A DNA stretch of 64,000 bases from Alphaproteobacteria bacterium (GTDB lineage Bacteria; Pseudomonadota; Alphaproteobacteria; JAAXGF01). This document shows, piece by piece, positions 12,355-27,761 of this stretch. The notes below the pieces were generated by a model. It was not told the origin of the DNA and made no database searches. It saw nothing but the letters and a program-made list of their open reading frames with translations. The stretch is taken from assembly GCA_963555825.3 (NCBI GenBank), contig CAUVXB020000002.1, positions 192,001 to 256,000 on the forward strand. The letters run 5' to 3'. The translations under genes were made by a program, and so were the position numbers. The first letter of the stretch is position 1. Each line of letters opens with the position of its first letter.

Positions 12355-13884
12355 ATGTCACGCGAACATCGTCGGGGCCGGCGCCCGTCGCGCGAGGGCG
12401 CGGCGATCAAGCAGCCACCCCTGCGAAACCTCGTCAATCCCTACAAGCCGATCGAGGTCATCAGCGCCGATCAGGTCGAGCAGATCCACCTGGCCTCGCT
12501 CACCGTGCTCGAATATCTCGGCCTCGAGTTCCTCGACGACGAGGCGCTCGACATTCTGGCCGGCGCCGGCGCCGACGTCGACAAGGGCGCGCGACTCGTG
12601 AAGTTCGATCGCGGCCTGATCGAGGAGAACATCGCCAAGGCGCCGGCCGAGTTCACGCTCTATGCCCGCAACCCGGCGCACAACGTCACCTTCGGCGGCA
12701 ACCACATCAACTTCTCGACGGTCGGCAGCCCGCCGCACGCCTCGGACCTCGACCGCGGCCGGCGCACCGGCAGCTACGCCGATTACTGCGATCTGCTGCG
12801 CCTCGGCCAGAGCCTCAACGTCATCCACCTGATCTCGGGCTATCCGGTCGAGCCGGTCGATCTGCCCGCCGCGACGCGCCACCTCGACGCCCATTACGCG
12901 TACATCACGCTGACCGACCGCGTCTGGCACCCCTATTCGCTCGGCCGCCAGCGCATCGCCGACGGCATCGACATGCTGTGCCTCGCGCGCGGCCTCGACC
13001 GCGAAGCGCTCAAGCGCGAGCCGGGACTGCTCAGCGTCGTCAACACCAACTCGCCGCTGCGCGTCGACGGCCCGATGCTGCAGGGCCTGATGGAGATGGC
13101 ACGGGCCGGCCAGTGCGTGGTGGTGACGCCGTTCACCCTGGCCGGCGCGATGAGCCCGGTGACCATCGCCGGCGCGCTGACCCAGCAGAACGCCGAGGCG
13201 CTCGCCGTCATCGCCTTCATCCAAATCGTCAGCCCCGGCGCGCCGGCGATGTACGGCGGCTTCACCTCGAACGTCGACATGAAGTCGGGCGCGCCCGCCT
13301 TCGGCACGCCCGAATACGCCCGCGCCGCGTTGGCCGGCGGCCAGCTCGCGCGGCGCTACAAGCTGCCCTACCGCTCGTCCAACGCCAACGCCGCCAACGT
13401 CGTCGACGCGCAGGCGGCCTATGAGTCCGAGATGTCGATCTGGTCGGCGGTGATGGGCCATTCGAACCTGGTGATGCACGGCGCCGGCTGGCTCGAGGGC
13501 GGCCTGACGGCGTCGTTCGAGAAGGTCATCATCGACGCCGAGATGCTGCAGATGATGGCCGAGTTCCTGCAGCCCTTGGAGGTCAGCGACGCGACATTGG
13601 GCCTAGAAGCGATGGCCGATGTCGGCCCCGGCGGCCACTTCTTCGGCACCCAGCACACACTCGACCGGTACGAGACCGCGTTCTACCAGCCGATGGTGTC
13701 GGACTGGCGCAATTTCGAGACCTGGGAGGAAGCCGGTTCGCTGACCGCGACGCAGCGCGCCAACGCGATCTGGAAGCAGCTGCTCGCCGACTACGAGCAA
13801 CCGCCGATCGACCCCGGCGCCGACGAGGCGCTCAAGGACTTCGTCGCCCGCCGCAAGCGCGAGGAAGGCGTCGAGGCGGCGTAG
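12355..13884 (+). CDS. Trimethylamine methyltransferase (MttB) family protein, non-pyrrolysine
   Basis: 'NTNSPL', 'TPFTLAGAMSPVT', 'GGFTSNVDMKSGAPAFGTPE', 'GWLEGGL'; no in-frame amber codon. Confidence 0.92.
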   Translation: MSREHRRGRRPSREGAAIKQPPLRNLVNPYKPIEVISADQVEQIHLASLTVLEYLGLEFLDDEALDILAGAGADVDKGARLVKFDRGLIEENIAKAPAEFTLYARNPAHNVTFGGNHINFSTVGSPPHASDLDRGRRTGSYADYCDLLRLGQSLNVIHLISGYPVEPVDLPAATRHLDAHYAYITLTDRVWHPYSLGRQRIADGIDMLCLARGLDREALKREPGLLSVVNTNSPLRVDGPMLQGLMEMARAGQCVVVTPFTLAGAMSPVTIAGALTQQNAEALAVIAFIQIVSPGAPAMYGGFTSNVDMKSGAPAFGTPEYARAALAGGQLARRYKLPYRSSNANAANVVDAQAAYESEMSIWSAVMGHSNLVMHGAGWLEGGLTASFEKVIIDAEMLQMMAEFLQPLEVSDATLGLEAMADVGPGGHFFGTQHTLDRYETAFYQPMVSDWRNFETWEEAGSLTATQRANAIWKQLLADYEQPPIDPGADEALKDFVARRKREEGVEAA

Positions 13885-14747: not shown

Positions 14748-16265
14748 ATGGCACGTGAACGAAGCCGCGGCCGCCGCAAGGCCCCGACCGGGCTCAAGCA
14801 GCTGCCGTGGCGCAACATCACCAACCCCTACGCACCCGTCGAGGTGCTGTCGGAAGAGCAGATCGAGCGCATCCACGACGCCTCGCTCACGGTGCTCGAA
14901 GACATCGGCATGCTGATCCACGGCGCCGAGGCGCGCGACATCCTGGCCAAGGCGGGCGCCGACGTCGACGAGGCGTCGGGCCGCGTGCGCTTCGACCGCG
15001 GGCTGATCATGGAGGCGGTCGCGCAGACGCCGGCCGAGTTCACGCTCTATGCCCGCAACCCGGCGCGCAACGTCCATTTCGGCGCCAACCACATCAACTT
15101 CTCGCCGGTCTCCAGCCCGCCGAATTACTCGGACCTCGAGGGCGGCCGCCGCCCCGGCACCTACGCGGCGTTCTGCGACTTCCTGCGCCTCTCGCATATG
15201 TTCAACATCATGCACTTCATCGGCGGCTATCCGGTCGAGCCGCAGGACCTGCCGGTGCCGACGCGGCATCTCGATGCCTATTACGGTTTCATCACCTTGA
15301 CCGACCGCGCCTGGCGCACCTATGCGCTGAGCCGCGACCGCTCGGTCGACGGTATCGAGATGATGTGCATCGCGCGCGGCGTCGACCGCGCGCAGCTGGC
15401 CCGCGAGCCGGGCGTGCTGACCATGATCAACACCAACTCGCCGCTCGTGCTCGACGGGCCGATGAGCGACGGGCTGATCGAGATGTCGCGCGCCGGCCAG
15501 GCGGTCTCGATCACGCCGTTCACGCTGGCCGGCGCGATGAGCCCGGTGACCATCGCCGGCGCGCTGACCCAGCAGAACGCCGAGGCGCTCGCCGGCCTGG
15601 CGCTCATCCAACTGGTCAACCCCGGCGCCCCGGCGATTTACGGCGGCTTCACATCGAACGTCGATATGAAGTCCGGCGCGCCGGCCTTCGGCACGCCGGA
15701 GTACGCCATCGCGACCTTCGCCGGCGGCCAGCTCGCGCGGCGCTACGCGATTCCCTACCGCTCGTCGAACGTCAACGCGTCGAACGCGGTCGATGCGCAA
15801 GCCGCCTACGAGTCCGGGATGTCGATCTGGTCGGCGGTGATGAGCCACGCGAGCTTCGTCCACCACGGCGCCGGCTGGCTCGAAGGCGGGCTGTGCGCCT
15901 CGTTCGAGAAGATGATCATCGATGTCGAGATGCTGCAGATGATGGCCGAGTTCATGGTGCCGCTCGAGGTCACCGAGGCGACGCTGGGCGTCGAGGCGAT
16001 GGCCGACGTCGGGCCCGGCGGCCACTTCTTCGGCACCCAGCACACGCTCGATCGTTACGAGACCGCGTTCTACGACCCGATCGTCTCGGACTGGCGCAAC
16101 TTCGAGACCTGGGAGGAGACCGGTTCGCTGACCGCCACCGACCGCGCCAACACGATCTACAAGCAGATGCTCGCCGACTACCAGCCGCCGCCGCTCGATG
16201 CCGCGATCGAGGAAGAGCTCACGGCCTACATGACCAAGCGCAAGGCAGCCAACGCCGCGGCGTAG
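14748..16265 (+). CDS. Second MttB family methyltransferase (paralog)
   Basis: Same motifs as 12355-13884, with long near-identical stretches. Confidence 0.92.
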   Translation: MARERSRGRRKAPTGLKQLPWRNITNPYAPVEVLSEEQIERIHDASLTVLEDIGMLIHGAEARDILAKAGADVDEASGRVRFDRGLIMEAVAQTPAEFTLYARNPARNVHFGANHINFSPVSSPPNYSDLEGGRRPGTYAAFCDFLRLSHMFNIMHFIGGYPVEPQDLPVPTRHLDAYYGFITLTDRAWRTYALSRDRSVDGIEMMCIARGVDRAQLAREPGVLTMINTNSPLVLDGPMSDGLIEMSRAGQAVSITPFTLAGAMSPVTIAGALTQQNAEALAGLALIQLVNPGAPAIYGGFTSNVDMKSGAPAFGTPEYAIATFAGGQLARRYAIPYRSSNVNASNAVDAQAAYESGMSIWSAVMSHASFVHHGAGWLEGGLCASFEKMIIDVEMLQMMAEFMVPLEVTEATLGVEAMADVGPGGHFFGTQHTLDRYETAFYDPIVSDWRNFETWEETGSLTATDRANTIYKQMLADYQPPPLDAAIEEELTAYMTKRKAANAAA

Positions 16266-16584: not shown

Positions 16585-17474
16585 ATGCAGACAAGAGAAG
16601 TCATTAAGGAGATTCGATGGATTCGCAGCCTAGTCTCCACCGAACTAGAGAATTGGATGTTTCATAAGGGTATGAAAGAAGAGCCCGACGTCATCCGCTG
16701 CATCGTAGCTTGCCTATCCGGTTTACACCCACACCCACTAGGGCTAGAATGGGCGCAAACCGGATATAGGGGAGCGCGCCATGGATGTTCTCGACCGCGC
16801 CGATCTCCCATTCCCGCATTCGCCACCTCAACATGGTTCTTGGGCTGTCCACCGATCCTGTCTTGGTTGGGCCGCACCATGCCCGAGCGGAGCTTGTGGA
16901 GAATTTGAAAGGCCGTCTCGTAGCGCGAAAGACCAAGTTGCCGCTGAAACTGCACGGCGGACATGCCGGGCGTCTGACTGGCGACCAGATAAGCGGCCCA
17001 GAACCAGACGTTCAGCGGAGTGTGGCTACGCTCCATCACTGTTCCCACCGTCAGCCCGGTGTTCTGGCGGCACTTGCGGCAGCGCAGGACGCCAGGGCGG
17101 TTTTCAAAGTGGAACGGCTCTCCCGCCGTGCCGCAGTGCGGGCAGGCAAAGCCGTCTCCCCAGCGGGCTTTCTCCAGGTAGGCGGCGCAGGCCGCATCAT
17201 CGGGGAAAAGTCGCTGGAACTCGGGTAGCGAATGCGGGAATGGGAGATCGGCGCGGTCGAGAACATCCATGGCGCGCTCCCCTATATCCGGTTTGCGCCC
17301 ATTCTAGCCCTAGTGGGTGTGGGTGTAAACCGGATAGGCAAGCATCGTAGATGCATCACAATTTGCCGATCGGTTGTCAAGAAATGCCGCCGCTGTACAG
17401 ATCATGCAGGCCTTTGGCCTGGATCAACTTGCAGACCGTGAAACGTTTTATGCGTGGGTCCAAGGGAATACTGG
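16585..17474 (+). pseudogene. Hypothetical gene interrupted by the IS1595-derived element and truncated by IS21
   Basis: AGGAGG RBS; MQTREVIKE...IRCIV continues in frame (DASQFADRL...WVQGNT) after removing 16709-17350. Confidence 0.65.
16709..17342. mobile_element. IS1595-derived non-autonomous element made of two inverted left ends
   Basis: Perfect 115-bp IR (16709-16823 / 17228-17342); 8-bp duplication CATCGTAG; truncated transposase with Zn ribbon 'CPHC...CRKC'. Confidence 0.85.
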
Positions 17475-17665: not shown

Positions 17666-18430
17666 TCAGTTAGCAGTCGGGGTTTGACGCCTGCGGCTCT
17701 GGTTGAGCCTGTAGCTGTCACCGTTCATCTCGAGGATGTTGACGTGGTGGGTGAGGCGATCGAGGAGCGCGCCGGTGAGGCGCTCGGAGCCGAACACCTC
17801 GGTCCATTCGTCGAAGGGCAGATTGGTGGTGACCAGGGTCGAGCCCCGCTCGTAGCGTTGGCTGAACACCTCGAACAACAGCTCGGCGCCGGTCTTCGAC
17901 AGCGGCACGAAGCCGAGTTCGTCGACGATCAGAAGCTTGTAGGTGGCGAGCTTCTTCTGGAACCTCAGCAGCTGCTTGTCATCGCGGGCCTCGATGAGTT
18001 CGTGGACCAGCGCGGCGGCGGTGATGAAGCCGACCGAGAGGCCCTTCTGGCAGGCCGCCAGGCCGAGACCGAGGGCGATGTGGGTCTTGCCGGTCCCACT
18101 GTTGCCGAGCGCGATGAGGTTCTCGCGGCGCTCGATGTACTCGCAGCGGGCCAGCTCCAGGACCAGCGCCTTGTTGAGCGAGGGGATGACCTTGAAGTCG
18201 AAGCTGTCGAGGCTCTTGACCACGGGGAAGCGCGCCGCCTTGATGCGCCGCTCGACCATGCGGCGCTCGCGGTCGATCAGCTCGAGCTCGGCGAGTCTCA
18301 ACAGGTAGCGGACGTGATCGACGCCTTCCGAGGCGCACTGCCGGGCGATCTTGTCGTACTCGCGCAGGAAGGTCGGCAGCTTCAGCGTCTTGAGGTGGTG
18401 GGCGAGCAGCACTTGCGGTGTGTCGGTCAT
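17666..18430 (-). CDS. istB: IS21 helper ATPase
   Basis: Walker A 'GNSGTGKT', Walker B 'LLIVDELG', 'LLDRLTHH'. Confidence 0.95.
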   Translation of the reverse strand: MTDTPQVLLAHHLKTLKLPTFLREYDKIARQCASEGVDHVRYLLRLAELELIDRERRMVERRIKAARFPVVKSLDSFDFKVIPSLNKALVLELARCEYIERRENLIALGNSGTGKTHIALGLGLAACQKGLSVGFITAAALVHELIEARDDKQLLRFQKKLATYKLLIVDELGFVPLSKTGAELLFEVFSQRYERGSTLVTTNLPFDEWTEVFGSERLTGALLDRLTHHVNILEMNGDSYRLNQSRRRQTPTAN

Positions 18431-19926
18431 GCGCCGAGCCCCGACAGCAGGCTCATGTACGACTTGGCGGACGTCATCGCGACCCGGGCGCGCGGCAGAT
18501 ACGGATAGACGTCGAGGTTGAGCCTGGGCGGCCGCCGCTCGATGCGGCACAGTACCAGGTGCTTCACCGCATCAAAGCCGATTGCGCCGAGCCGCAGGGC
18601 GTCGCCGACCGCACCCTCGACCTCCTCGAGCCGGAAGGTCTCCAGTAGACGGAGCACCTGGACGTACTCGCGCTTGCCTGCCTTGCCCATACGAGCTTCG
18701 AGGAGCCGCCGCAGAGTGATGAAGGCCTCGGGCAGGTCCCAGCCCGCCAATGGCGCGGCCTGGTCGAGGGCGCCGATCTTCTGCTCGATCAAGGGCAGGT
18801 AATGCAGCGGGTCGAAGATCAGGTCCTCGCTGTCGTAGGACCGGCGGTGCCGGGCGATCACCTCGGCCCCGCAGCTGATCACCACCTCATCGACGTAGCC
18901 CCGGATGAGCACCTCACGGTGGCCGTAGGCCACGGGCACGGAATAGTCGTTGCTGCGGTAACGCACCAGCGACAGCGAACTCGCCCGTCCAGGGCGCTTA
19001 TCGCAGGCATCATAGGGAGCAGGCGGCAATGGCAAGAGAACTTGACGATCCCGCTCGAGACGCTCGCCGATGGTCTCCTTGTGGCCCCGCAGCCGCGCCG
19101 CCTGGCGCCGGCGGCACTGTTCGGCGAGAGCATCGTTGAGGGCCGCGAAGCTCTCGGCACGCGGGACGGGGACCAGGAAGTTCCGCCGGATGAAGCCGAC
19201 CAGTCCCTCGACCTTGCCCTTGTCGTTGCCCTTGCCCGGCCGGCCGAACCTGTCCTCGAACAGATAGTGGGACTGAAGCTCCGTGAAGACGCGCGTTCGC
19301 TGCCGCTTCCCATCGCCCAGGATCCGGGCAACCGCCAGCTTGGTGTTGTCGTACAGGATGGATCGGGGGACGCCGCCGAAGAAGGCAAACGCCGCGTTGT
19401 GGCCATCGCAGAATGCTTCGGTCGTCTCCGCCGGATAGGCCGCAACAAAGCAACCATCACTGTGGGGAAGGTCGAAGGCAAGGAAGTGGATCTTCCGTAA
19501 CGCGCCGCCGATCACCGCCATCGCTTCGCCGAAGTCCGCCTGGGCGTGACCGGGGGAATGGGAGAGTGGCACGAACACCTCACGCGACCGAAGCCCCTGC
19601 TCACGAACGTAGTCCTTCACGATGGTGTAGCCGCCCGTGAAACCGTACTCGTCCCGGAGGCGGTCGAAGATGCGCTTCGCAGTGTGCCGTTGCTTGCGGT
19701 GGCTGGTCCGATCGTCTTCCAAGATCCGATCGATGATTCCCGTGAACGGACCCAGCTTTGGCCGCCTCGGCGGCGCGCTTCGGCGATACCCTGGCGGCAC
19801 CGAGAACGACAGCATCTTACGGACCGTCTTGCGGTCTACACCAAACACCCGCGAGGCCTCGCGGGTGCTCATCCCCTCGACATGACACGCCCGCCGAACC
19901 CGTGCGTACAACTCCACCCGATACAT
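18427..19926 (-). CDS. istA: IS21 transposase
   Basis: 'AQADFGEA', 'LYDNTK', 'GNDKGKVE', 'NDYSVP'. Confidence 0.95.
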   Translation of the reverse strand: MYRVELYARVRRACHVEGMSTREASRVFGVDRKTVRKMLSFSVPPGYRRSAPPRRPKLGPFTGIIDRILEDDRTSHRKQRHTAKRIFDRLRDEYGFTGGYTIVKDYVREQGLRSREVFVPLSHSPGHAQADFGEAMAVIGGALRKIHFLAFDLPHSDGCFVAAYPAETTEAFCDGHNAAFAFFGGVPRSILYDNTKLAVARILGDGKRQRTRVFTELQSHYLFEDRFGRPGKGNDKGKVEGLVGFIRRNFLVPVPRAESFAALNDALAEQCRRRQAARLRGHKETIGERLERDRQVLLPLPPAPYDACDKRPGRASSLSLVRYRSNDYSVPVAYGHREVLIRGYVDEVVISCGAEVIARHRRSYDSEDLIFDPLHYLPLIEQKIGALDQAAPLAGWDLPEAFITLRRLLEARMGKAGKREYVQVLRLLETFRLEEVEGAVGDALRLGAIGFDAVKHLVLCRIERRPPRLNLDVYPYLPRARVAMTSAKSYMSLLSGLGA

Positions 19927-21389
19927 CCCCCCCGCCTTCCAGTCAGAGCAACCCTGACAGAAGGCTATACGCGGTCCCATTTTGGTCCGCCGCAGCCGGA
20001 TCGACCGGCCGCTTCAGTGGGGGATTATTGCTCTGCCGTTCTCATATATAAATCCCATTGTTTGCAAGCCTGATGATACATAGCGCTAAACCCCATGGCT
20101 GCCCGGGCACTGATCCCTGGTCGTATTCGGCGGTTGCAAGGGGGATGGCGGTCGAGCCATCAAACCATCACCAGCGCGATCAATGACGGAACGTTGATTT
20201 CGTCATCGACCTGGGCGACCCGGATTTTGTCCTTGTCGAAGAAAAACAGCGGAAACAGGAACTTGTCCGGCAACACCAGGCCCTGATCGCTTGCCTCGAG
20301 TTCCAGCGTCCGTACTTCCAGGCGATGGTTTCGCAACCGGTCGTTCAGGGCGTCGACGGAAATTTTCATGTCGAAGGCGGGCAGCCCGCCGAAATTCATC
20401 AACACCTCGTCGGTGACGTCGGACAGGAATGTATTGACCACCTGATATGCGGTGTCCATGCCGAGCAACTTGCGCCCGAGCCGGCACACCAGCGTATTGG
20501 TTTCATCGTGTTCGGTGAGCGCCAACATGGTCCCCATCCGCTCCAAGCCGAGCGACAGCAGGAATTCCTCGTCGAGAAAATTTCCGGTCACGGCATCCAG
20601 TCCTGCTTCGCGCGCGGCTGCCAGGTTGTCGTCCTTGTTGTCGACCAGCTTGACCGGCACCCCCCGGGCGGCCAGCAGCTCGGCGATTGTTATGGAGAAC
20701 TCGTGAATCCCAACCAGCAGGAAGCCGTTGCGCGGGGGTGCGTTGACTTTAAGCAGGCCGGCGATCGGCGCGATCGTCAGTCCCTGCAATACGACTGTAA
20801 CCATGATCACCAGGAACACGACGGTTTCGACGGCGTCCGCCTGCGGATAGCCCTTGTCGATCAAGACCTGGGAAAACAACGAAGCCGTGGCCGCGGCGAT
20901 AATGCCCCGCGGGGCGAGCCAGACCAGAAACAGCTTTTCCCGCAGGTTCAACGCCGTACCGATCGTCGTCAGAAACACCGTAAGTGGGCGCGCAATGAAC
21001 AGGATCGAGAGCACGGCGGGCACCATGAGCCAGCCGAAATCACCGAGCTTGGAAAGGTCGATGCGCGACGACAGCAGTATGAACAGGAAGGAGATGACCA
21101 GCGTGGAAAGCTGTTCCTTGAAGTCCCTGATCCGCTCCAGCGACGGGTGCTTGAGCTGTCCCAGCACGAGACCGGCCACCGTCACCGTCACCAAGCCCGA
21201 CTCCGAGGCCAAATGGTTGGCGCCCCAATAGGCCAGCAGGATGATGCCCAAAATCACCAGGTTCAGAAGGTCGTGGGGTACGAGCTTGCGCGTAATGGCG
21301 AAAATCAACACGCGGCCCGTGCCATAACCGATGGCGCCTCCCAGTATCAAGCGACCGAAGAAATAAAGTGCGCCCCGTTGTCCAGACCA

Positions 21390-22277
21390 TTATGCGGCCT
21401 GTTTAAGATAATTTTTGTCTCCTGATTGCTGTTGTTGCGCCTGTGGGGATGTGGGTAAGCCGTCAGGCTTATCCATCATATCCACGGGCCGGTGGCCGCC
21501 TTCGAAATAAACCTCGTCGGGCGTATTGTAATCCAGCGACTGGTGCGGTCTCTGGCTGTTGTAGAAGTCGATGTAGGCGCCGATGCAGCGCCGCGCCTCG
21601 GGCAGGCTCTCATAGACCCGGAGATAGACTTCCTCGTATTTGATCGAGCGCCAGAAGCGCTCAATGAAGATGTTGTCCAGGCAACGCCCTTTGCCGTCCA
21701 TGGAAACCCGAATGCCGCAGTCCTCCAGCGCCGATACCCAGTCCTTGGCCGTGAACTGCGCCCCCTGGTCCGAGTTGACGATGTCCGCAACCCCTTGGGC
21801 AAGCGCATCCTCCAGCGCCTCGAGACAGAACGTCCGGCTCATCGAGTTGGACAGGCGCCAGCCCATGATCCGGCGGCTGTAAACATCGATCAGCGCCACC
21901 AAATAAGCGAAGCCCACCGGCAACTTGATGTAAGTGATGTCCACCTGCCAGACCTGACCGGGGCGGACAATGTCCAGATCCTGCAGAAGATAAGGATGGA
22001 CAACGTGGTCCCGCCCCGGGCGGCTGGTCTTGGGCGTGGCGTACAACGCCGCGATCCCCATCGCCTTCATCAGGCGGCGCACCCGCTTGTGGTTGACGAC
22101 ATGGCCGGCGCGGCGCAAGACCTCGGCGATCTTGCGGTAGCCGTAGAACGGACGGGCCTCCCAGATGTCCCGGATGCGGTTCATCATGTCGACCTCGTCA
22201 TCCGTCCCGGAACGCCGCCGGTAGTACACCGTGCTGCGGTTGATATCCAAAAGGGCGCATTGGCGGCGCAGGCTCAA
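21390..22277 (-). CDS. IS3 transposase OrfB
   Basis: 'WQVDITY', 'NSDQGAQF', 'DNIFIERFWRSIKYE'. Confidence 0.93.
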   Translation of the reverse strand: MSLRRQCALLDINRSTVYYRRRSGTDDEVDMMNRIRDIWEARPFYGYRKIAEVLRRAGHVVNHKRVRRLMKAMGIAALYATPKTSRPGRDHVVHPYLLQDLDIVRPGQVWQVDITYIKLPVGFAYLVALIDVYSRRIMGWRLSNSMSRTFCLEALEDALAQGVADIVNSDQGAQFTAKDWVSALEDCGIRVSMDGKGRCLDNIFIERFWRSIKYEEVYLRVYESLPEARRCIGAYIDFYNSQRPHQSLDYNTPDEVYFEGGHRPVDMMDKPDGLPTSPQAQQQQSGDKNYLKQAA

Positions 22278-22321
22278 GTCGCCACCTTCGCGCCGGAGAA
22301 GTGCTTTTCTTTTGTCACGGC

Positions 22322-22606
22322 TCAGCTCTCCAATGCTTTTTTTAAGAAGTCGCGCTCCATCGTCAACTCGCCGATCTTCTCATGCAACTTGGCGATGGTC
22401 CGCTCATCCGCCGTCCCCGACCGGCGGCGCTTGTCGGCGAAAAGGCTCTTGCCCCCACATTCCAACTGGTCACGCCACTTCTGGATCGCGCCAACCGAAA
22501 CCGCATACTCCCGGCTCAGCTCCCCAAGCGTCCGGTCTCCCTTCAACGCCGCCAGCGCCACCTTGAATTTGAAACCTTCGCCATGCGTCTTGCGAACCCT
22601 CGTCAT
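22322..22606 (-). CDS. IS3 transposase OrfA
   Basis: 'RKTHGEGFKFKVALAAL', 'LHEKIGELTMERDFL'. Confidence 0.92.
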   Translation of the reverse strand: MTRVRKTHGEGFKFKVALAALKGDRTLGELSREYAVSVGAIQKWRDQLECGGKSLFADKRRRSGTADERTIAKLHEKIGELTMERDFLKKALES

Positions 22607-23474
22607 CCTTCAATCCTTCCCCGAAAGAAGGAGACAGACTTATCTTAAACCGTGGTCCGAAAAACGGGGCGCAGCATAAAATGTCCCGCCGTCGTCAGAT
22701 TTAGATCGCTGCCGGAAACGACGAACTGCAGCGTCACCACCATGAGGATCGCGCCAATGGCATCGACGATGATCGCTTCCCACGTCAGCACGTCATGGAG
22801 CTTCTTCTGGCGCGCGCGCGCGCCAGAAGGGGCCCGACAACCGTCGGACCCGACACGATCAGGATCGCTCCGATCAACATTGCCACGCCGAGATTGAGAT
22901 CCAGGATGACATGCAGGCAGACGCTAACCACGGCCATGGTGATGAAGGGGCCACCGATGATGATGCCCAAAATTGCCTTGGGCGCGGCCTTGAGATCGGG
23001 AATGTGGAGGGTCATTCCGCCCTCGAACAGAATGATCGCAACGCCGAGCGAGATGGCCGCCGATGTGATTTCGGGAATCTCGTGCGTGCGCAGGACATGC
23101 AGTACCTGAGGTCCCGCCACGATGCCGAAAAGCATGAGAAATATGATGCTGGGGAGCCGCAGTTTCTGGGATAGGACCTGCGCGGCCACGCCAAGAAATA
23201 TGGCGAGAGCTATGGTCTGTAGGATGTGTTCGCTTTCCATTTGACTCTCGCCACAGCTTGACCACGGCGGCCGATTGAAGTCCCCCGCGTCGTTTGAAAG
23301 AAGACCCGGGGTATGCAAAAACCTGGGGTCAATGGTACCGTCAACTTAAGCCATCACAACCCGGCACAACCAGATAATATCGAAGGACGAGGATCGATCG
23401 GCGTAGAGTGGCGATGGCCGCCGCGAAACTGTGGGGACTTTTCGGGCGCGCGCTTTCCGATTGATGGGGGACAG

Positions 23475-26078
23475 ATGTTCACGATCGTGATCGGCGACGG
23501 ACTGACCAACGAATATCTAAGTCCGGAGGTTCAGTTCCAGACCTGCCCGCTCAACGTCGGCCGCCAAGAGATCGATCGTCTCCTGGGTGCCGGGCCGGAC
23601 TTTGGCAACGGGGTGCTGCCCGAGTTTCTCCGCGAAGCCGCGAGAGTCAGCAAGCACGGCACGAACTCGGCGCTGGTCCTGTTGCGGAGCGCCGAAAGCG
23701 GCATCGGTTCCGATCGGGGAGGCAAGCCTCAGCATGACGGTGGTGGCGACTTCGTAGAGCCGCTGAAGGAGATTGCCGGCGATGCCGAAGTCATCGACAC
23801 GGCGCACCGGGCACTGCCATTGCCGGCGTTCCGCCAAGCCGTCGAGCGCCTCACCGGTTTCGACCCGATGGCGGAGGAAACGGACAGAAACGAATTCCGG
23901 TTTTTGCTTCTCGGCTGCGATACCGAGAATCGCATACTCGCTCTGGCGACCTTCCTGCGAAGCATCCTCGGTTACGCGAAAGTGGCGGTTTCCTCGCATC
24001 TCGTCGGAAGCGCCACGAAGGACGCCCATTTCGCCGCCCTGCGCCATAACTTCCCCAGCGCGGGCATCGAGGTCTTTCTTGACTTGGAAGATGCCGCGCG
24101 CTTCGTCGACATCGATCCGGCCCGTTTCGGCAATTTCACATGCCGGCCGTGCGTCATCGAACCACTCGAAGCTCGGCAAGCTCTTGGCGAGGAGCAGAGA
24201 GCCATCATCGAGTTGCTTTGCATGCACTGGACCCGGACCGATCTGAAGCCGTTACAGGGCGGCTTCAGCGGCAGCCTGCTATTCCTCGCGGACGGTTGGA
24301 AGGACGACGCTCGCACCGAGCCGATGGTGATCAAGATAGACGACTTCGCGCAAATGCGCCGCGAGCTCGAGGGTTACCAGCAGGTATTCGACTTTTTCGG
24401 CAAGCACGTCCCCACCTTCGGCAATCCGGTCGCGGTCGGAGATTACATCGGCATCGCCATGGAACTGGCTGCCATGGAGGGGCGCCCCGAGACCATTCAG
24501 GACAGTTTCGAGCGCGCCGACGGCGAGGCGGACGTCCGCCGTTTCATGGGTCGGCTGGATAAGGCGTTGGAACTGATTACGGACAAGCTCTACCGCAATA
24601 CCCGGACGCTCACGCGGATCGCTCCCTATCGCAGGTTCCATCTTCACACGGATGAACAATTGCAGTGGCTGCGCGAGAATGTCGGCTACATCATGGATTA
24701 CCGTGACGCCGTTGCCGGCAACAGCCCACAGGTGGACTGCGAGACGATCGAGAAGATCCTGAAGTTGATCACCTCGAACGAGGACGCCATCGAAAGCGAA
24801 GCCTGTATCGCCCACGGCGACCTCAACATGAAAAACATCATTTGCGACGAGGTCGACAACATCTGGTTCATCGACTGGACCCACTGCGGTCAGCATCCCG
24901 TGGAAATGGACTTCGCGAAGCTGGAGAACGACATCAAGTTCGTCGCCAGCAAGCAGTTCGACCTGGACGACCTCGTCCGGCTCGAGAAGTTCGAGGAATA
25001 CCTCCTTTCGCACCGCCTGCCGGCCGACGCCAGCAGCCTTCCCGACAACCTGAAATTCGCGAAGTGGGATCTGCGGTTCCGAAAGATTCTGGATACCGTT
25101 CGGAAGATCCGGGAGACTTGTTTTTCCCTGAAGGACGACGAAGACTGGCTTGTCTACCGCACCGCACTGCTCAGGTACGCGCTGCACACGCTCAGCTTCG
25201 ACAAGCGGCGAGACCTGGGCGAATGCGATCTTCCCCAACTCTTGCACGCCCTGTTCTCGATCGACTGCCTGGTCTTCATACTCGTTACCGACGACTTCCA
25301 TCTCAAGATCCGGGGCGAGCGGCCCGACTCTTACCCGCCGAGGCTGCGCGTGCCCATCGACGAGGCCCCCTGGGGCGCCGAATGCCCGGACTACACGCCG
25401 CCGTATCACGTCGACCCGTCGGTTCCGAGCAACGACGGGGCCCAAAATGCGGGCGGCTGGGCCGATCCGGAGGATTTCGAAAAAGCTCAAGAACCCGGCG
25501 AACGGGAAACGGCTGATATTCACGATGCGGCAGGGCGCGCACTCAATCCTCGCGGACGCACCGGGATCGCCGGCCGGGGCCTGCTGGGAAGGTGGGGGGC
25601 CAATTTCATGGTCGGCGCCGTCGTCGTGCGAACCGGCGGCACCGCGGGCGAACTCGACATACTCCTGGGCCGGACCGGGGAAGGCGGTGACCTTTCGCTC
25701 CCGGAAGGCTTCGCTGGGCCTGGGGAAAGCCGCGAAACCGCAATGGCACGCGTCCTTGAAGCCACGACTGGCTGGCGGCCCGAGCCCGGGACCGGAGACG
25801 TCATCTTCGAGGGCTACAGCTATGACGCCCGGCAGACCGATCATGCCTGGATCGATATCCAGGCCCGCCTGTTCCATCTTGGCGACGAATTCGGGCCTTC
25901 CCGTTTTCGCCCGGGCAGTGACTTCGAGGAGGTCGAATGGCGGCGCCTGGACGCCGGGGCCGTAAACCGCCTGCCGTCCAATCAAGCACGTCTGGTCCGC
26001 GAGGCGGTCAAAAGGTTGCGCGATACCGACAGCATCGATCAACAGCTGGCGGTGTCGCTCCTCGCCAAAACGGGGTGA
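23475..26078 (+). CDS. Multidomain protein: degenerate isochorismatase-like + APH/kinase-fold phosphotransferase + NUDT9-like Nudix domain
   Basis: 'GGFSGS', 'VIKID', 'HGDLNMKN', 'FIDW'; 'NPRGRTGIAGRGLLGRWGAN', 'DARQTDHAW'; ATG at 23475 chosen for its RBS. Confidence 0.8.
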   Translation: MFTIVIGDGLTNEYLSPEVQFQTCPLNVGRQEIDRLLGAGPDFGNGVLPEFLREAARVSKHGTNSALVLLRSAESGIGSDRGGKPQHDGGGDFVEPLKEIAGDAEVIDTAHRALPLPAFRQAVERLTGFDPMAEETDRNEFRFLLLGCDTENRILALATFLRSILGYAKVAVSSHLVGSATKDAHFAALRHNFPSAGIEVFLDLEDAARFVDIDPARFGNFTCRPCVIEPLEARQALGEEQRAIIELLCMHWTRTDLKPLQGGFSGSLLFLADGWKDDARTEPMVIKIDDFAQMRRELEGYQQVFDFFGKHVPTFGNPVAVGDYIGIAMELAAMEGRPETIQDSFERADGEADVRRFMGRLDKALELITDKLYRNTRTLTRIAPYRRFHLHTDEQLQWLRENVGYIMDYRDAVAGNSPQVDCETIEKILKLITSNEDAIESEACIAHGDLNMKNIICDEVDNIWFIDWTHCGQHPVEMDFAKLENDIKFVASKQFDLDDLVRLEKFEEYLLSHRLPADASSLPDNLKFAKWDLRFRKILDTVRKIRETCFSLKDDEDWLVYRTALLRYALHTLSFDKRRDLGECDLPQLLHALFSIDCLVFILVTDDFHLKIRGERPDSYPPRLRVPIDEAPWGAECPDYTPPYHVDPSVPSNDGAQNAGGWADPEDFEKAQEPGERETADIHDAAGRALNPRGRTGIAGRGLLGRWGANFMVGAVVVRTGGTAGELDILLGRTGEGGDLSLPEGFAGPGESRETAMARVLEATTGWRPEPGTGDVIFEGYSYDARQTDHAWIDIQARLFHLGDEFGPSRFRPGSDFEEVEWRRLDAGAVNRLPSNQARLVREAVKRLRDTDSIDQQLAVSLLAKTG

Positions 26079-26084
26079 GCGCCT

Positions 26085-26999
26085 GTGACACTGACGAAAC
26101 TGGAACGGGCCTGCATCGACGCCCACAGGAAGGGCAACCGAACGGATGCCGCCATCGGCACCCCCGTCGACACGACGGCGTGGCTGCGCTTCGGCTTGAG
26201 CGTGCTGCTCGAGACCGGGCGCATGGTGCGGGGCATGCGCCTTCTGCCCATGGACGCGGCGGTTCAGTTCAAGTCGGACGGCTCGCCGGTCACGGCCCTG
26301 GAGCACCGGATCGAGACCTTCGTTCGTGAGCGCCTGACGGAAATCTGCCCCGAAGCGGGCTTCGTTGGCGAGGAATCCGGCGGCGCCCTGCCGCCCCGGG
26401 GGTATGCCGTCGCGATCGACCCGGTGGACGGCACCTGGTCCCTGGTCAACCGCACGGAAAGCTGCACGACGGGGCTTGCCTTCTTCCACGACGGCGAAGC
26501 ATTTCTGGGCATGGTCCTGAACCCGGCAACCGGAGAGCTTGGCTATGCCGCCAGCGATACCGGGACACGGCTCCTGCAGGTCTCCCTGTTTGGCGAGGAT
26601 GATGCGGCTGTCACGCTTCCCGGCGAGCGGCTTCGGCCACAAACCCTTCTGGTCAATCTCCAGCCCAGCCGGGACGCCCAGGACATGATTGGCGGCTTCT
26701 TCGAGGCATGGCGCGACGGTGGCGTGAACATGGTGAAGCTACCCGGCGGTTCCCCGTTGTGGGCGATGTTGGAAGCCGCGAAGGGAAGCTTCGTCTACGT
26801 CAATCTCTGGTCCAGGCGGGCGGCGCAGGCGTACGACTTGGCAGCCGGGATCATGCTGGTCCGAGGGGCCGGCGGCGACGTAACCGACCTCGCCGGCAAG
26901 CCGATCAAAACGACGGACCACAGGGGCACCTTCGTCGCTGGCATCGACCGGGAAGCGCGCCGCAAGGTCGCGGCCATAGTTCGAAGTTCGGCGGATTAG
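26085..26999 (+). CDS. Inositol monophosphatase (FIG) family phosphatase
   Basis: 'KSDGSPVT', 'GEE', 'IDPVDGT', 'YDLAAG...GAGGDVTD'; starts 6 bp after the upstream stop. Confidence 0.85.
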   Translation: MTLTKLERACIDAHRKGNRTDAAIGTPVDTTAWLRFGLSVLLETGRMVRGMRLLPMDAAVQFKSDGSPVTALEHRIETFVRERLTEICPEAGFVGEESGGALPPRGYAVAIDPVDGTWSLVNRTESCTTGLAFFHDGEAFLGMVLNPATGELGYAASDTGTRLLQVSLFGEDDAAVTLPGERLRPQTLLVNLQPSRDAQDMIGGFFEAWRDGGVNMVKLPGGSPLWAMLEAAKGSFVYVNLWSRRAAQAYDLAAGIMLVRGAGGDVTDLAGKPIKTTDHRGTFVAGIDREARRKVAAIVRSSAD

Positions 27000-27000
27000 T

Positions 27001-27363
27001 TTGGATTGCCTGGTTCGGAAGGTAACCTATGGCGATGCAACCGGCAAAAGCATCGACGTCGTCAAGCCAGACAAACTCAAACCCGGTGCACGGCTGATCC
27101 GAGAATGGAATGGTCGGACCCATCGCTGGTTCGATGAGTTGGCGAGAGGAGAAGCTGGATCGGCGCGGGAGATTGCACGCCGCGACGGTATCGACGCGAG
27201 CGAAGTCAGCCGTACCACCCAGCTTGCCTTCCTGGCGCCCGATATCGTCGAGGCGACCTTGGCTGGGCATCAACCGGTCGAGTTGACGGCGTGGCACCTC
27301 ACGCGCGGCGTGCTCCTCATCGATTGGCAGCGACAGCGCGGCATCCTCGGCTTCGACGGCTGA
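27001..27363 (+). pseudogene. Deletion-fusion remnant: DUF2924-like fragment + large serine recombinase C-terminus
   Basis: 'KPGARLIREWNGRTH' joined directly to 'SAREIARRDG...LAFLAPDIVEA...DWQRQR'; adjacent to the tRNA 3' end. Confidence 0.7.
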
Positions 27364-27546
27364 TCGAGCTGCAAATTGCGCGCCATCATTGACCCAAAGA
27401 ATTGTCCGCGAAACACGCCGATGGAGACTTTCGGGCAAAATTGCCGTCTCTGCACAGCCACCACTACCGGAGAATCGCCCAAAATCGGCGGAAATCGGCC
27501 GGTTCGTGCACCTCGGGGGATGGACACCCGAAGTGCCGAGGGTGGG

Positions 27547-27623
27547 TGGTGGGCCGGGCAGGACTTGAACCTGCGACAACGCCGTTATGAGCGGCGCGTT
27601 CTAACCAACTGAACTACCGGCCC
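27547..27623 (-). tRNA. tRNA with CAT anticodon, probably tRNA-Ile2 (lysidine)
   Basis: Cloverleaf GGGCCGG...CTCATAA...GGTTCAAGTCC...ACCA; G1-C72 pair excludes initiator; C4-G69/C5-G68 fit TilS determinants. Confidence 0.93.
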
Positions 27624-27761
27624 GTGTTCAGGCGCCAGAGGGCAGAGAACAAAGATCAGGCCGCGGTACCCCGCACCGTCATCTGATCTCTCGTCGCTAA
27701 TCTCTGAACTTTGATTCTCTCGCCGATCGGCGACGGGATCAAGCGGCGATCGCGACATTCG

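Follow-up and report, generated by a model that had tools for sequence, protein, structure and literature searches.

The window analysed here, a stretch of 64,000 nucleotides from an alphaproteobacterial contig (CAUVXB020000002.1), contains a gene for a kinase enclosed between two domains of enzymatic ancestry, immediately followed by a phosphatase gene. What does such a pair sense, what does the kinase phosphorylate, and which process is controlled? The gene pair is widespread in bacteria yet unstudied, and no published description of it was found in the literature. The features of the locus are as follows.

23475..26078, plus strand, including the stop codon: 867-aa protein composed of pseudo-nicotinamidase, kinase and pseudo-NUDT9 domains (ORF, Pfam, homologue starts)
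23475..24149, plus strand: domain of the isochorismatase/nicotinamidase fold, residues 1-225, with R153 at the site of the nucleophile Cys (AF2, Foldseek, VIA)
24171..25304, plus strand: APH/ELK-fold kinase domain (Pfam TCAD9), residues ~233-610, catalytic core intact (Pfam, conservation, structure matches)
25308..26075, plus strand: NUDT9-homology (NUDT9-H) domain, cap and Nudix core, residues 612-867, with the degenerate box RVLEAT (profile search)
26085..26999, plus strand: IMPase-family phosphatase, 304 aa, beginning 6 nt past the stop of the kinase gene (Inositol_P)
22669..23318, minus strand: 5' pieces of a gene for a Kef-type antiporter (Na_H_Exchanger/TrkA_N), oriented divergently to the kinase gene (Pfam Na_H_Exchanger, tblastn)
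21390..22277, minus strand: IS3-family transposase (rve, HTH_21), between both Kef pieces (Pfam; position relative to the Kef pieces)
20160..21371, minus strand: 3' piece of the Kef-type gene, residues 211-613, with the TrkA_N domain (Pfam, tblastn)

The reading frame of the kinase gene is open from 23313 to 26078 on the plus strand, and the Met at 23475 (MFTIVIG) is internal to it. The starts of all homologues coincide with this Met, yielding a protein of 867 aa whose full-length homologues share 52-90% identity, and a Shine-Dalgarno-like GGGGGA run lies immediately 5' of it. The preliminary description of this DNA had reported an 867-aa ORF together with a set of motifs (among them GLTNEY and GCDTENRI at the N-terminus, RVLEAT near the C-terminus, and DPVDGT in the second protein), all of which are present in the translations. 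Its division of the protein into three domains is borne out by Pfam matches to TCAD9, APH and NUDIX and by the sequence and structure comparisons given below, all of which go well beyond what chance would give.

The central domain scores 96.2 bits against Pfam TCAD9 (cut-off 40) and matches APH with E 4.9e-10. Its kinase motifs, GGFSGS (residues 262-267), VIK (285-287), HGDLNMKN (447-454) and IDW (466-468), are those of an intact core, as had been claimed: among the 168 distinct family members on which all conservation counts are based, K287 and D467 are found in every one, and H447, G448, D449 and N454 in 167. The closest structures are sugar kinases, namely glucosamine kinase (Z 15.9) and maltokinase (Z 15.1-15.2), and MTR kinase is among the Foldseek matches. 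Its target is probably a small molecule, for which ADP-ribose itself is a possibility. A STAS protein, a transporter or some other protein is a conceivable substrate as well, because the APH/ELK fold includes protein kinases and weak matches to RIO1, Bud32 and Kdo kinase were obtained over the catalytic loop.

The N-terminal domain has no Pfam PF00857 match, unlike isochorismatase-like hydrolases. Its AF2 model (pLDDT 92) retrieved isochorismatase-like hydrolases and PncA as the best Foldseek matches, and in the VIA comparison the top 28 of 48,161 chains all belonged to the isochorismatase/nicotinamidase family (Z 13.4-17.9), the next fold reaching 7.6. The best of them, 3hb7 (Z 17.9), superimposes with an rmsd of 2.9 over 176 residues, and the PncA structure 5zn8 has the same fold (Z 16.8). 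Moreover, a paralogue with a Pfam Isochorismatase match aligns to this domain (hhalign probability 97.4). The column of the nucleophile Cys in the GxxTxxC(V/I) turn was assigned by motif register, by the paralogue alignment and by a weak hhalign match (E 0.087) to true isochorismatases encoded in this genome; so assigned, it holds Arg in 153 of the 168 members and Cys in none. The position of the triad Asp corresponds, in the register based on the paralogue, to Gly9, with D8 (134/168 members) adjacent. The metal-binding Asp and His of PncA have no conserved counterpart, as there is no invariant residue between G46 and P96. Another group of residues, a Cys/His/Ser cluster, is conserved instead (C148, H149, H175, S179, H185, H191), and the domain could be catalytic in a new way. 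The earlier view of it as dead is consequently right as to the nucleophile but may be overstated as to the domain.

At the C-terminus, the NUDIX Pfam score is 26 bits (cut-off 21.1). A profile built from 32 such domains (the C-terminal 256 residues) found human NUDT9 (1q33) as its best sequence match, with E 2.5e-31 over profile positions 7-238, and the NUDT9-H domains of TRPM2 at E 6.5e-27 to 5e-24, the human protein at 5e-24. A YPPR block, the NPRGRTGIAGRGLLGRWGAN block and DARQTDHAW all occur in the translated ORF; the latter two align with the signature blocks of the NUDT9 family (GRTG...GRGLLGRWGPN and DPRNTDNAW), so that GRTGxxGRGxLGxWGxN and DxRxTDxAW are common to both. PF25969 (NUDT9_N) is listed in the Atlas on 96% of the members of the cluster; the cap region (606-709) was modelled poorly, with pLDDT <50. 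The Nudix box (GX5EX7REUXEEXGU) is degenerate throughout the family: the Glu of the RE position, catalytic in NUDT9 ADP-ribose pyrophosphatases, occurs in 0/168 members, the next Glu in 14/168 and the last in 108/168, while G745, E751 and R759 are kept. The window protein (RVLEAT, residues 759-764) lacks all three glutamates of the box. A stand-alone relative among the bacterial NUDT9-like enzymes (locus L071) has an intact RELREE box. Taken with the Cys site of the N-terminal domain, this shows that the canonical catalytic residues were lost family-wide and not by local decay.

The second gene encodes an IMPase-family protein (Inositol_P, 91.7 bits, cut-off 27) in which the metal-binding motifs GEESG, DPVDGT and YDLAAG can be read and whose PDB sequence matches are IMPase, HisN and FBPase/IMPase. 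None of the named equivalogs could be assigned, as HisN (77.7 against 275 bits), CysQ (66.3 against 229) and, with lower scores, SuhB, FBPase/IMPase and NADP phosphatase all fall below the NCBIfam cut-offs. The linkage is conserved: among 50 genome loci, an IMPase gene lies directly 3' of the kinase gene in 41 and at another place in the locus in 4, the corresponding numbers for 25 metagenome loci being 17 and 6. Of the loci lacking IMPase, L057 carries a DSP-PTPase as a gene of its own, and in L012 a DSP-PTPase is fused to a paralogue; a phosphatase is always close to the kinase gene.

Wider neighbourhoods were counted from tblastn searches with single representatives over MAG contigs, and the loci are not independent, because many are Gemmatimonadota from related samples. 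With this reservation, STAS genes were found in 36/67 loci, RsbW-like genes also in 36/67, and any partner-switch gene (STAS, RsbW or PP2C) in 42/67. Immediately upstream of the pair is a gene for a cNMP-gated K+ channel in 18/51 loci and a STAS gene in 12/51; 9 of the 51 loci with enough upstream sequence lack both the channel and any partner-switch gene. In 17 loci there is a gene for a TrkA_N membrane protein. The transporters near the pair have cytoplasmic nucleotide-binding domains: cNMP-gated K+ channels, TrkA_N/RCK proteins, Kef-type antiporters, cNMP-MscS and SulP-STAS-cNMP proteins. One representative (P0156) is a full-length member that carries an RsbW-like domain as a fusion. These signalling and transport operons are conserved across at least six phyla.

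In the window, the kinase and phosphatase genes are intact, while the partner Kef gene is split by the IS3 element: by tblastn with an intact orthologue (locus L077), residues 1-173 map to 23318-22800 and residues 156-217 to 22869-22669. In all five closest relatives (L077-L081) the antiporter gene is intact (587-614 aa), upstream and divergent, as in the window. No partner-switch genes and no signalling partners were found within the window. The genome has one copy of the pair, 0/12 same-family genomes searched contain it, and its GC content is 58-62%, against 65-72% across most of the remaining window; hence the cassette, which lies in a low-GC island rich in IS elements, is a remnant acquired by horizontal transfer.

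From these data we tentatively propose that the pair constitutes a signalling cassette in which a kinase and a phosphatase respond to ADP-ribose or another NAD metabolite and which is linked to the control of ion transport; we regard this as quite plausible, short of probable. An active APH/ELK-fold kinase would sit between two ligand-binding domains that derive from enzymes. The NUDT9-H domain would bind, but not hydrolyse, ADP-ribose or a closely related nucleotide derived from NAD, and this ligand would either control the kinase or be presented to it; the kinase would phosphorylate a small molecule, likely at a sugar hydroxyl, the ribose of ADP-ribose being the leading candidate, and the co-transcribed IMPase-family phosphatase would take the phosphate off. 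Since in other bacteria the pair occurs in operons with STAS/RsbW/PP2C genes and nucleotide-binding transporters, the output would most likely be the control of ion flux in response to the NAD/energy or stress state, rather than phage defence. A bolder version, which we consider improbable, is that the cassette writes its own signal: NUDT9-H would capture ADP-ribose, the kinase would phosphorylate the free ribose and the IMPase would erase the mark. The K+ channels, Kef antiporters and partner-switch proteins encoded alongside would recognise the phosphate of ADP-ribose through their cNMP-binding, RCK/TrkA_N and STAS domains. In that case, this phosphorylated nucleotide would act as a second messenger not recognised before, through which NAD turnover would be coupled to ion flux.

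The same observations can be read in other ways. The enzyme could be a protein kinase of the partner-switching system, with pseudoenzyme domains as sensors, a STAS protein, an RsbW/PP2C component or the cytoplasmic domain of a transporter as its target, and the IMPase only making or removing a small-molecule ligand. Partner-switch genes are indeed the commonest neighbours after IMPase, the STAS genes directly upstream and the single RsbW-kinase fusion point in the same direction, and the catalytic loop resembles those of RIO and Bud32. However, the STAS proteins of these operons are already served by RsbW-like kinases, and the best structure matches are sugar kinases and not protein kinases; in addition, IMPase-family enzymes are not known to act on proteins, and yet the kinase is invariably found with either a phosphatase gene or a fused DSP-PTPase. 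We consider this possibility unlikely. Somewhat less likely still is that the flanking domains have remained catalytic with non-canonical sites, the protein being a multi-enzyme of NAD/ADP-ribose metabolism, which would, for example, phosphorylate ADP-ribose and then condense it with nicotinamide (a single-protein counterpart of the NAD+ reconstitution of phages), or take part in an ADP-sugar or osmolyte pathway completed by the IMPase. Some Nudix enzymes are active despite atypical boxes, and maltokinase and MTR kinase, which are relatives with the APH fold, transfer phosphate to the anomeric hydroxyl of sugars; the conserved Cys/His/Ser cluster and the Nudix residues that are kept, including the last Glu, would suit such a role. 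Phage pathways rebuilding NAD+ from ADP-ribose and nicotinamide do exist, as passages on NARP1 state (10.1101/2024.02.11.579819; PMC13586617). Against this stand the absence of the first Nudix Glu and of the Cys nucleophile from all 168 members and an operon context of signalling and transport, not of NAD biosynthesis, with no Namat-, PRPS- or Nampt-like gene among the recurrent neighbours.

The preliminary description had placed the pair in anti-phage defence or counter-defence, as a sensor of NAD damage triggered by the nicotinamide and ADP-ribose that TIR or SIR2 NADases release. The flanking domains do derive from enzymes handling both NADase products, the window pair lies in the low-GC island with its many IS elements, and the Pfam family of the kinase is named after conflict systems, as a figure legend of PMC10910872 has it. 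Nevertheless, no PADLOC-DB 2.0 family was matched at E <= 0.001 by the kinase, by the IMPase, by the paralogue or by any window neighbour, and no TIR or SIR2 NADase and no vWA, MoxR or VMAP gene was found in 18 loci with Pfam-scanned ORFs, other loci being checked by clustering. Neighbours that are partner-switch genes and ion transporters, conserved over so many phyla, are typical of housekeeping signalling, not of variable defence islands. The defence framing is therefore not supported, and we regard it as very improbable.

The cassette of kinase and phosphatase can be compared with further known systems. TCAD9 (PF19974) APH-like kinases, among which the window protein is placed by its score above the gathering threshold, belong to the vWA-MoxR-VMAP ternary conflict systems (Kaur et al., 2020; PMC7159879); the term TCAD9 itself has 0 occurrences in the main text of that paper, and its definition may be in the supplements. 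In contrast to those systems, neither the recurrent neighbour clusters nor the Pfam-scanned ORFs of the 18 loci contain vWA, MoxR AAA+ or VMAP, and the present sub-family differs from other TCAD9 kinases by its own isochorismatase-like N-terminal domain, counted in 216 representatives, and by variable C-terminal modules (NUDT9-H or DSP-PTPase). The archaeal bifunctional NADP phosphatase/NAD kinase likewise combines an IMPase-family phosphatase with a kinase around an adenine-nucleotide theme, and its model PRK14076 gave a weak NCBIfam match (E 1.1e-4, 21 bits against a cut-off of 493); however, that enzyme is fused and its kinase has the NADK fold, whereas the window pair is encoded by separate genes and its kinase has the APH fold.

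Another parallel, already drawn from the window sequence, is vertebrate TRPM2. Its NUDT9-H domain and the bacterial one are members of a single NUDT9 family and share its cap subdomain, and at the same alignment columns the Nudix box reads REFGEE in NUDT9, RILRQE in human TRPM2 and RVLExE in the kinase family. In both, box glutamates are lost and an Asn, which in the kinase family is that of LNPxGRTG, is retained: N691 is invariant in an alignment of 33 sequences and aligned with N1326 of human TRPM2, called critical in a passage of PMC5671594. In TRPM2 the domain is covalently fused to a TRP channel, while in the bacterial protein it is joined to a kinase and to a domain of the nicotinamidase fold and is coupled genetically to a channel or transporter as a separate gene (cNMP-gated K+ channel, Kef-type antiporter or TrkA_N protein). 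The bacterial system is, furthermore, accompanied by a phosphatase, and its sensing of ADP-ribose is predicted from sequence. Judging by the retained signatures of the ADP-ribose site, the bacterial cassette and TRPM2 would have come to the same solution, a non-catalytic NUDT9-H domain serving as a sensor.

In the 867-aa product of the first gene, an apparently active kinase stands between two domains of enzyme origin without their canonical catalytic residues; an IMPase-family phosphatase gene follows at once:

23313-26078 (+), open frame of the kinase gene, start Met at 23475 (MFTIVIG), 867 aa
26085-26999 (+), IMPase gene, 304 aa, beginning 6 nt past the kinase stop

In the homologue alignment MFTIVIG is the start of every member, and a GGGGGA run lies directly 5' of its Met; the upstream ATG 23313 (921 aa) was rejected, as no homologue reaches beyond MFTIVIG. 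All motifs named in the preliminary description were found in the 867-aa translation, and GEESG, DPVDGT and YDLAAG were read in the IMPase. The kinase protein matches Pfam TCAD9 (96.2 bits, cut-off 40), APH (E 4.9e-10) and NUDIX (26 bits, cut-off 21.1). The IMPase matches Inositol_P (91.7 bits, cut-off 27) and falls below all named NCBIfam equivalogs, the best being HisN (77.7 vs 275 bits) and CysQ (66.3 vs 229). A promoter and terminator scan gave no useful signal.

A search for the full-length family returned 345 matches, the best 120 of which are 52-90% identical along their full length. The 68 loci from the genome collection belong to Gemmatimonadota, Gammaproteobacteria, Acidobacteriota, Planctomycetota, Myxococcota, Bacteroidota and others. 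Conservation was counted over 168 distinct aligned members. The kinase core is kept almost throughout (Lys 168/168, HGD..N 167/168, Asp467 168/168). In the whole-protein model (pLDDT 77) the kinase part best matches glucosamine kinase 6hwl (Z 15.9, 313 residues), followed by maltokinase (5jy7, Z 15.2; 4o7o, Z 15.1), and its Foldseek list includes APH(3') and MTR kinase as well; among structures, sugar kinases are thus the best match to the predicted fold.

The N-terminal domain has no Pfam match, and its profile gave no meaningful match to PDB sequences (a single one, at E 0.3). Its assignment comes from fold comparison only, with the domain modelled alone from 33 sequences (pLDDT 92). The top 28 chains among 48,161 PDB representatives were all isochorismatase-like hydrolases or nicotinamidases (Z 13.4-17.9), as expected from the cysteine-hydrolase fold first suggested for it, and the next-ranked fold reached Z 7.6. 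The best match was 3hb7 (Z 17.9, rmsd 2.9, 176 residues), PncA 5zn8 scored Z 16.8, and Foldseek concurs. The sequence gap to this predicted fold is bridged by a DSP-type paralogue, which matches Pfam Isochorismatase (e.g., locus L012, 10558-12924 (+), E 2.4e-8) and aligns with the window domain at an hhalign probability of 97.4. Alignment with five genuine isochorismatases of the source genome was not significant (hhalign E 0.087) and served for register only. The nucleophile column holds Arg in 153 of the 168 members and Cys in none. The catalytic Asp has an ambiguous register, since D8 adjoins the aligned Gly9. A polar cluster is conserved (C148 142/168, H149 138/168, H175 167/168, S179 167/168, H185 163/168, H191 154/168) and looks like a candidate ligand or metal site; in the window copy position 149 is Asp, not His.

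The C-terminal domain was compared through a profile (A3) built from 32 such domains, which matched human NUDT9 (E 2.5e-31), Nematostella and choanoflagellate TRPM2 (E ~7e-27) and human TRPM2 (E 5e-24) in an alignment spanning cap and Nudix core. All homologues have a further Pfam family, PF25969, whose name in the ESM Atlas is 'NUDT9_N'. The cap (residues 606-709) was modelled poorly within the whole protein (pLDDT <50), so the evidence for it comes from sequence comparison. None of the 168 members has the Nudix 'RE' Glu (its column holds V 119, I 20, T 11, A 8, others), the next canonical Glu is kept in 14 and the last in 108, while the box retains G745, E751 and R759. The same columns in HMMER read REFGEE in NUDT9, RILRQE in human TRPM2 and RVLExE in the family; in the clade of the window copy the last Glu is gone too, giving RVLEAT (T in 10/168). 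The Asn of LNPxGRTG (N691) is invariant and occupies the column of hTRPM2 N1326, which is critical to the ADP-ribose site according to the review PMC5671594. That review also describes the hTRPM2 box as departing strongly from the consensus GX5EX7REUXEEXGU, with catalysis lost. Separately, a genome of the same class (G019) encodes two free-standing NUDT9-like paralogues, both hydrophobic at the N-terminus; the box is intact in one (RELREE; L071, 1147-2130) and degenerate in the other (RKLREK; L070, 27-959), so box loss may have occurred more than once in bacteria.

Since the RE Glu and the nucleophile Cys are missing family-wide and the kinase core is kept, the substitutions are a conserved design and not decay of the window copy; none of the 168 members keeps REUxEE. 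The earlier view of both flanking domains as dead holds for the canonical residues, but the N-domain retains its Cys/His/Ser cluster.

The N-domain profile collected 216 representatives (E <= 0.001) among 1.84 billion proteins. Pfam was run on 43 of the 150 matches listed, picked as longer or more distant; 32 of them have the domain fused to the TCAD9 kinase, and the other 11 comprise two with a Hanks-type kinase, one with only a weak Inositol_P match (P0153), four with Isochorismatase alone and four without a Pfam family. P0153 (1228 aa) was not counted as a kinase-IMPase fusion: the patchy IMPase match includes arginine-rich filler, and the protein may be a frameshift artefact. The C-terminal module takes four forms: NUDT9-H (protein ~860 aa), none (~600 aa), DSP-PTPase (~775 aa, matching the 'PTP-SAK' and 'PTP-NADK' models, in one case with an extra rubrerythrin domain) and PD40 repeats. 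Isochorismatase-like, TCAD9 and DSP-PTPase domains are combined in a paralogous family (L012, P0239, P0243, P0253, P0254, P0257, P0262); the paralogue also lacks the nucleophile Cys and has Lys in its place.

Linkage of the IMPase gene to the kinase gene, asserted from the window, proved to be conserved. Of the genome loci, 50 have a complete C-terminus followed by 950 nt or more; in 41 of these the IMPase gene is immediately downstream on the same strand (within 300 nt), in four it lies elsewhere in the locus and in five it is missing; the corresponding numbers for 25 such metagenome loci are 17, six and two. Two IMPase-less loci have substitutes, a stand-alone DSP-PTPase (L057) and a DSP-fused paralogue in the IMPase slot (L012). 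Also linked to the pair are partner-switch proteins and transporters that bear cytoplasmic nucleotide-binding domains. These neighbours were counted by tblastn with one representative each (at least 40-50% coverage) in 67 loci, many of them Gemmatimonadota MAGs from related samples, so that the counts are not independent events: single-domain STAS proteins 36, RsbW-like anti-sigma kinases 36, PP2C-HATPase proteins 29, at least one partner-switch gene of any kind 42, a six-TM channel bearing both a cNMP-binding domain and the filter TVGFGD 25 (the gene immediately upstream in 18 of the 51 with enough flank), a TrkA_N-domain membrane protein past the IMPase 17, Amt 15, Band7 13, PII 12 and GlnA 10. 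Single loci contribute a cNMP-MscS channel (L002), a SulP-STAS-cNMP protein (L033) and a cNMP-PP2C protein (L051). Protein P0156 (1014 aa) has an RsbW-like HATPase_c_2 domain joined to the front of an entire family member (866 aligned residues, 44% identity), a natural fusion that offers Rosetta-stone support for the putative link to partner switching.

The TrkA_N protein (e.g., L031, 11521-12783 (+), and 16 other loci) is ~420 aa long with two TrkA_N/RCK-like Rossmann motifs, and stands directly past the IMPase in Gemmatimonadota-type operons; no pore motif was recognisable in it, and its N-terminal part has no Pfam family. In a Chromatiaceae MAG a protein containing shoulder and repeat domains of Major Vault Protein (L057, 5450-7984 (+)) is encoded directly upstream of the family member.

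A broken Kef-type K+/H+ antiporter gene (Na_H_Exchanger plus TrkA_N) and insertion sequences precede the kinase gene:

20160-23318 (-), broken Kef-type gene, recovered by tblastn as the next three pieces
23318-22800 (-), Kef residues 1-173
22869-22669 (-), Kef residues 156-217
21371-20163 (-), Kef residues 211-613
21390-22277, transposase gene of the IS3-family element that splits the Kef gene, between its pieces
18427-19980 (-), IS21 istA
17666-18550 (-), IS21 istB
16662-17270, IS1595-type zinc-ribbon transposase fragment adjoining IS21

An additional frameshift may lie near Kef residues 156-217. Coincidence had been considered for this adjacency, as tblastn found no Kef-like gene at the 68 genome loci; it was overturned by the five closest metagenome relatives (L077-L081, 71-90% identity), all of which have an intact gene (587-614 aa) divergently upstream. 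Beyond it lie SulP-STAS-cNMP (L077, L080) or a Na/Pi cotransporter, STAS and PAS-PP2C-RsbW (L079, L081), and L081 has RsbW and STAS past the IMPase as well. IS21 and the IS1595-type fragment occupy the place of the relatives' SulP or Na/Pi-transporter and partner-switch genes; remnants of SulP, Na/Pi transporter, PP2C, RsbW, STAS or the downstream TrkA_N gene were not detected in the window. The kinase gene is single-copy in the source genome, the genomes of 40 relatives, 12 of the same family (completeness 57-98%) among them, yielded no full-length homologue, and GC is 58-62% at 20-26 kb vs 65-72% over most other window DNA. Together with the broken Kef gene, these data indicate that the island described as ruined is real; it is the stump of a signalling/transport module and not of a defence island.

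Contig L001 (4113 nt, from a Bryobacterales MAG bin) matches window positions 23575-27687 over its whole length (99.9% identity, four mismatches); either mis-binning of DNA from the window's organism or transfer in the very recent past could explain it. Elsewhere in the window, two full-length genes of the MttB family (trimethylamine methyltransferase-like) stand close to each other (12355-13884 and 14748-16265 (+)), each scoring ~670 bits to PF06253.

We tentatively favour an NAD-metabolite-sensing kinase with a reversing IMPase and an ion-flux and partner-switch output. The NUDT9-H domain would bind ADP-ribose or a close NAD-derived nucleotide uncleaved, as in vertebrate TRPM2. The kinase substrate may be a small molecule, because the kinase resembles sugar kinases and is paired with a small-molecule-type phosphatase; the ribose of bound ADP-ribose is the leading candidate. 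The IMPase would undo the kinase step, and ion flux and partner switching would form the output. The same resemblance and pairing speak against a protein kinase belonging to the partner switch, a reading that the STAS, RsbW-like and PP2C neighbours and the P0156 fusion would suit, and which we regard as unlikely.

A still catalytic enzyme of NAD/ADP-ribose metabolism would fit the polar cluster of the N-domain and the last Nudix Glu where it is kept, but not the family-wide absence of the canonical residues, and seems rather improbable. As to the defence sensor of NAD damage envisaged in the preliminary description, no NADase, vWA, MoxR or VMAP occurred among the recurrent neighbour clusters or the 18 Pfam-scanned loci, neither the kinase and IMPase nor the paralogue is matched by a PADLOC model, and we consider a defence role very unlikely.

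The component families are already known, and the architecture is present in databases under automatic names; of these names ('ADP-ribose pyrophosphatase', 'NUDIX domain-containing protein', 'phosphotransferase') the first and last are probably wrong or incomplete. No published account of it was found in the portions of the literature covered, which included parts of PMC9503650 and PMC13143021. In PMC7159879, active kinases of the APH superfamily figure in ternary systems only as 'a few examples', and the word TCAD9 is absent from the main text; its supplements may define the family. What we rate as new is a kinase putatively gated by pseudoenzyme domains, one of them a candidate NUDT9-H sensor in bacteria. 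If the sensing-kinase reading is correct, it would point to a signalling role for ADP-ribose or a phosphorylated derivative in bacteria, apart from phage defence, and this small family would offer biochemistry a compact system of one active kinase, two pseudoenzymes and a dedicated phosphatase. The silenced NUDT9 domain as an ADP-ribose sensor would then not have been invented solely in animal TRPM2 channels, and the substitution pattern and the channel or antiporter adjacency would extend over at least six bacterial phyla. Like the NUDT9-H domain of TRPM2, the bacterial family combines such substitutions with a place next to ion channels or antiporters, and could provide a tractable prokaryotic comparison for TRPM2 biology.
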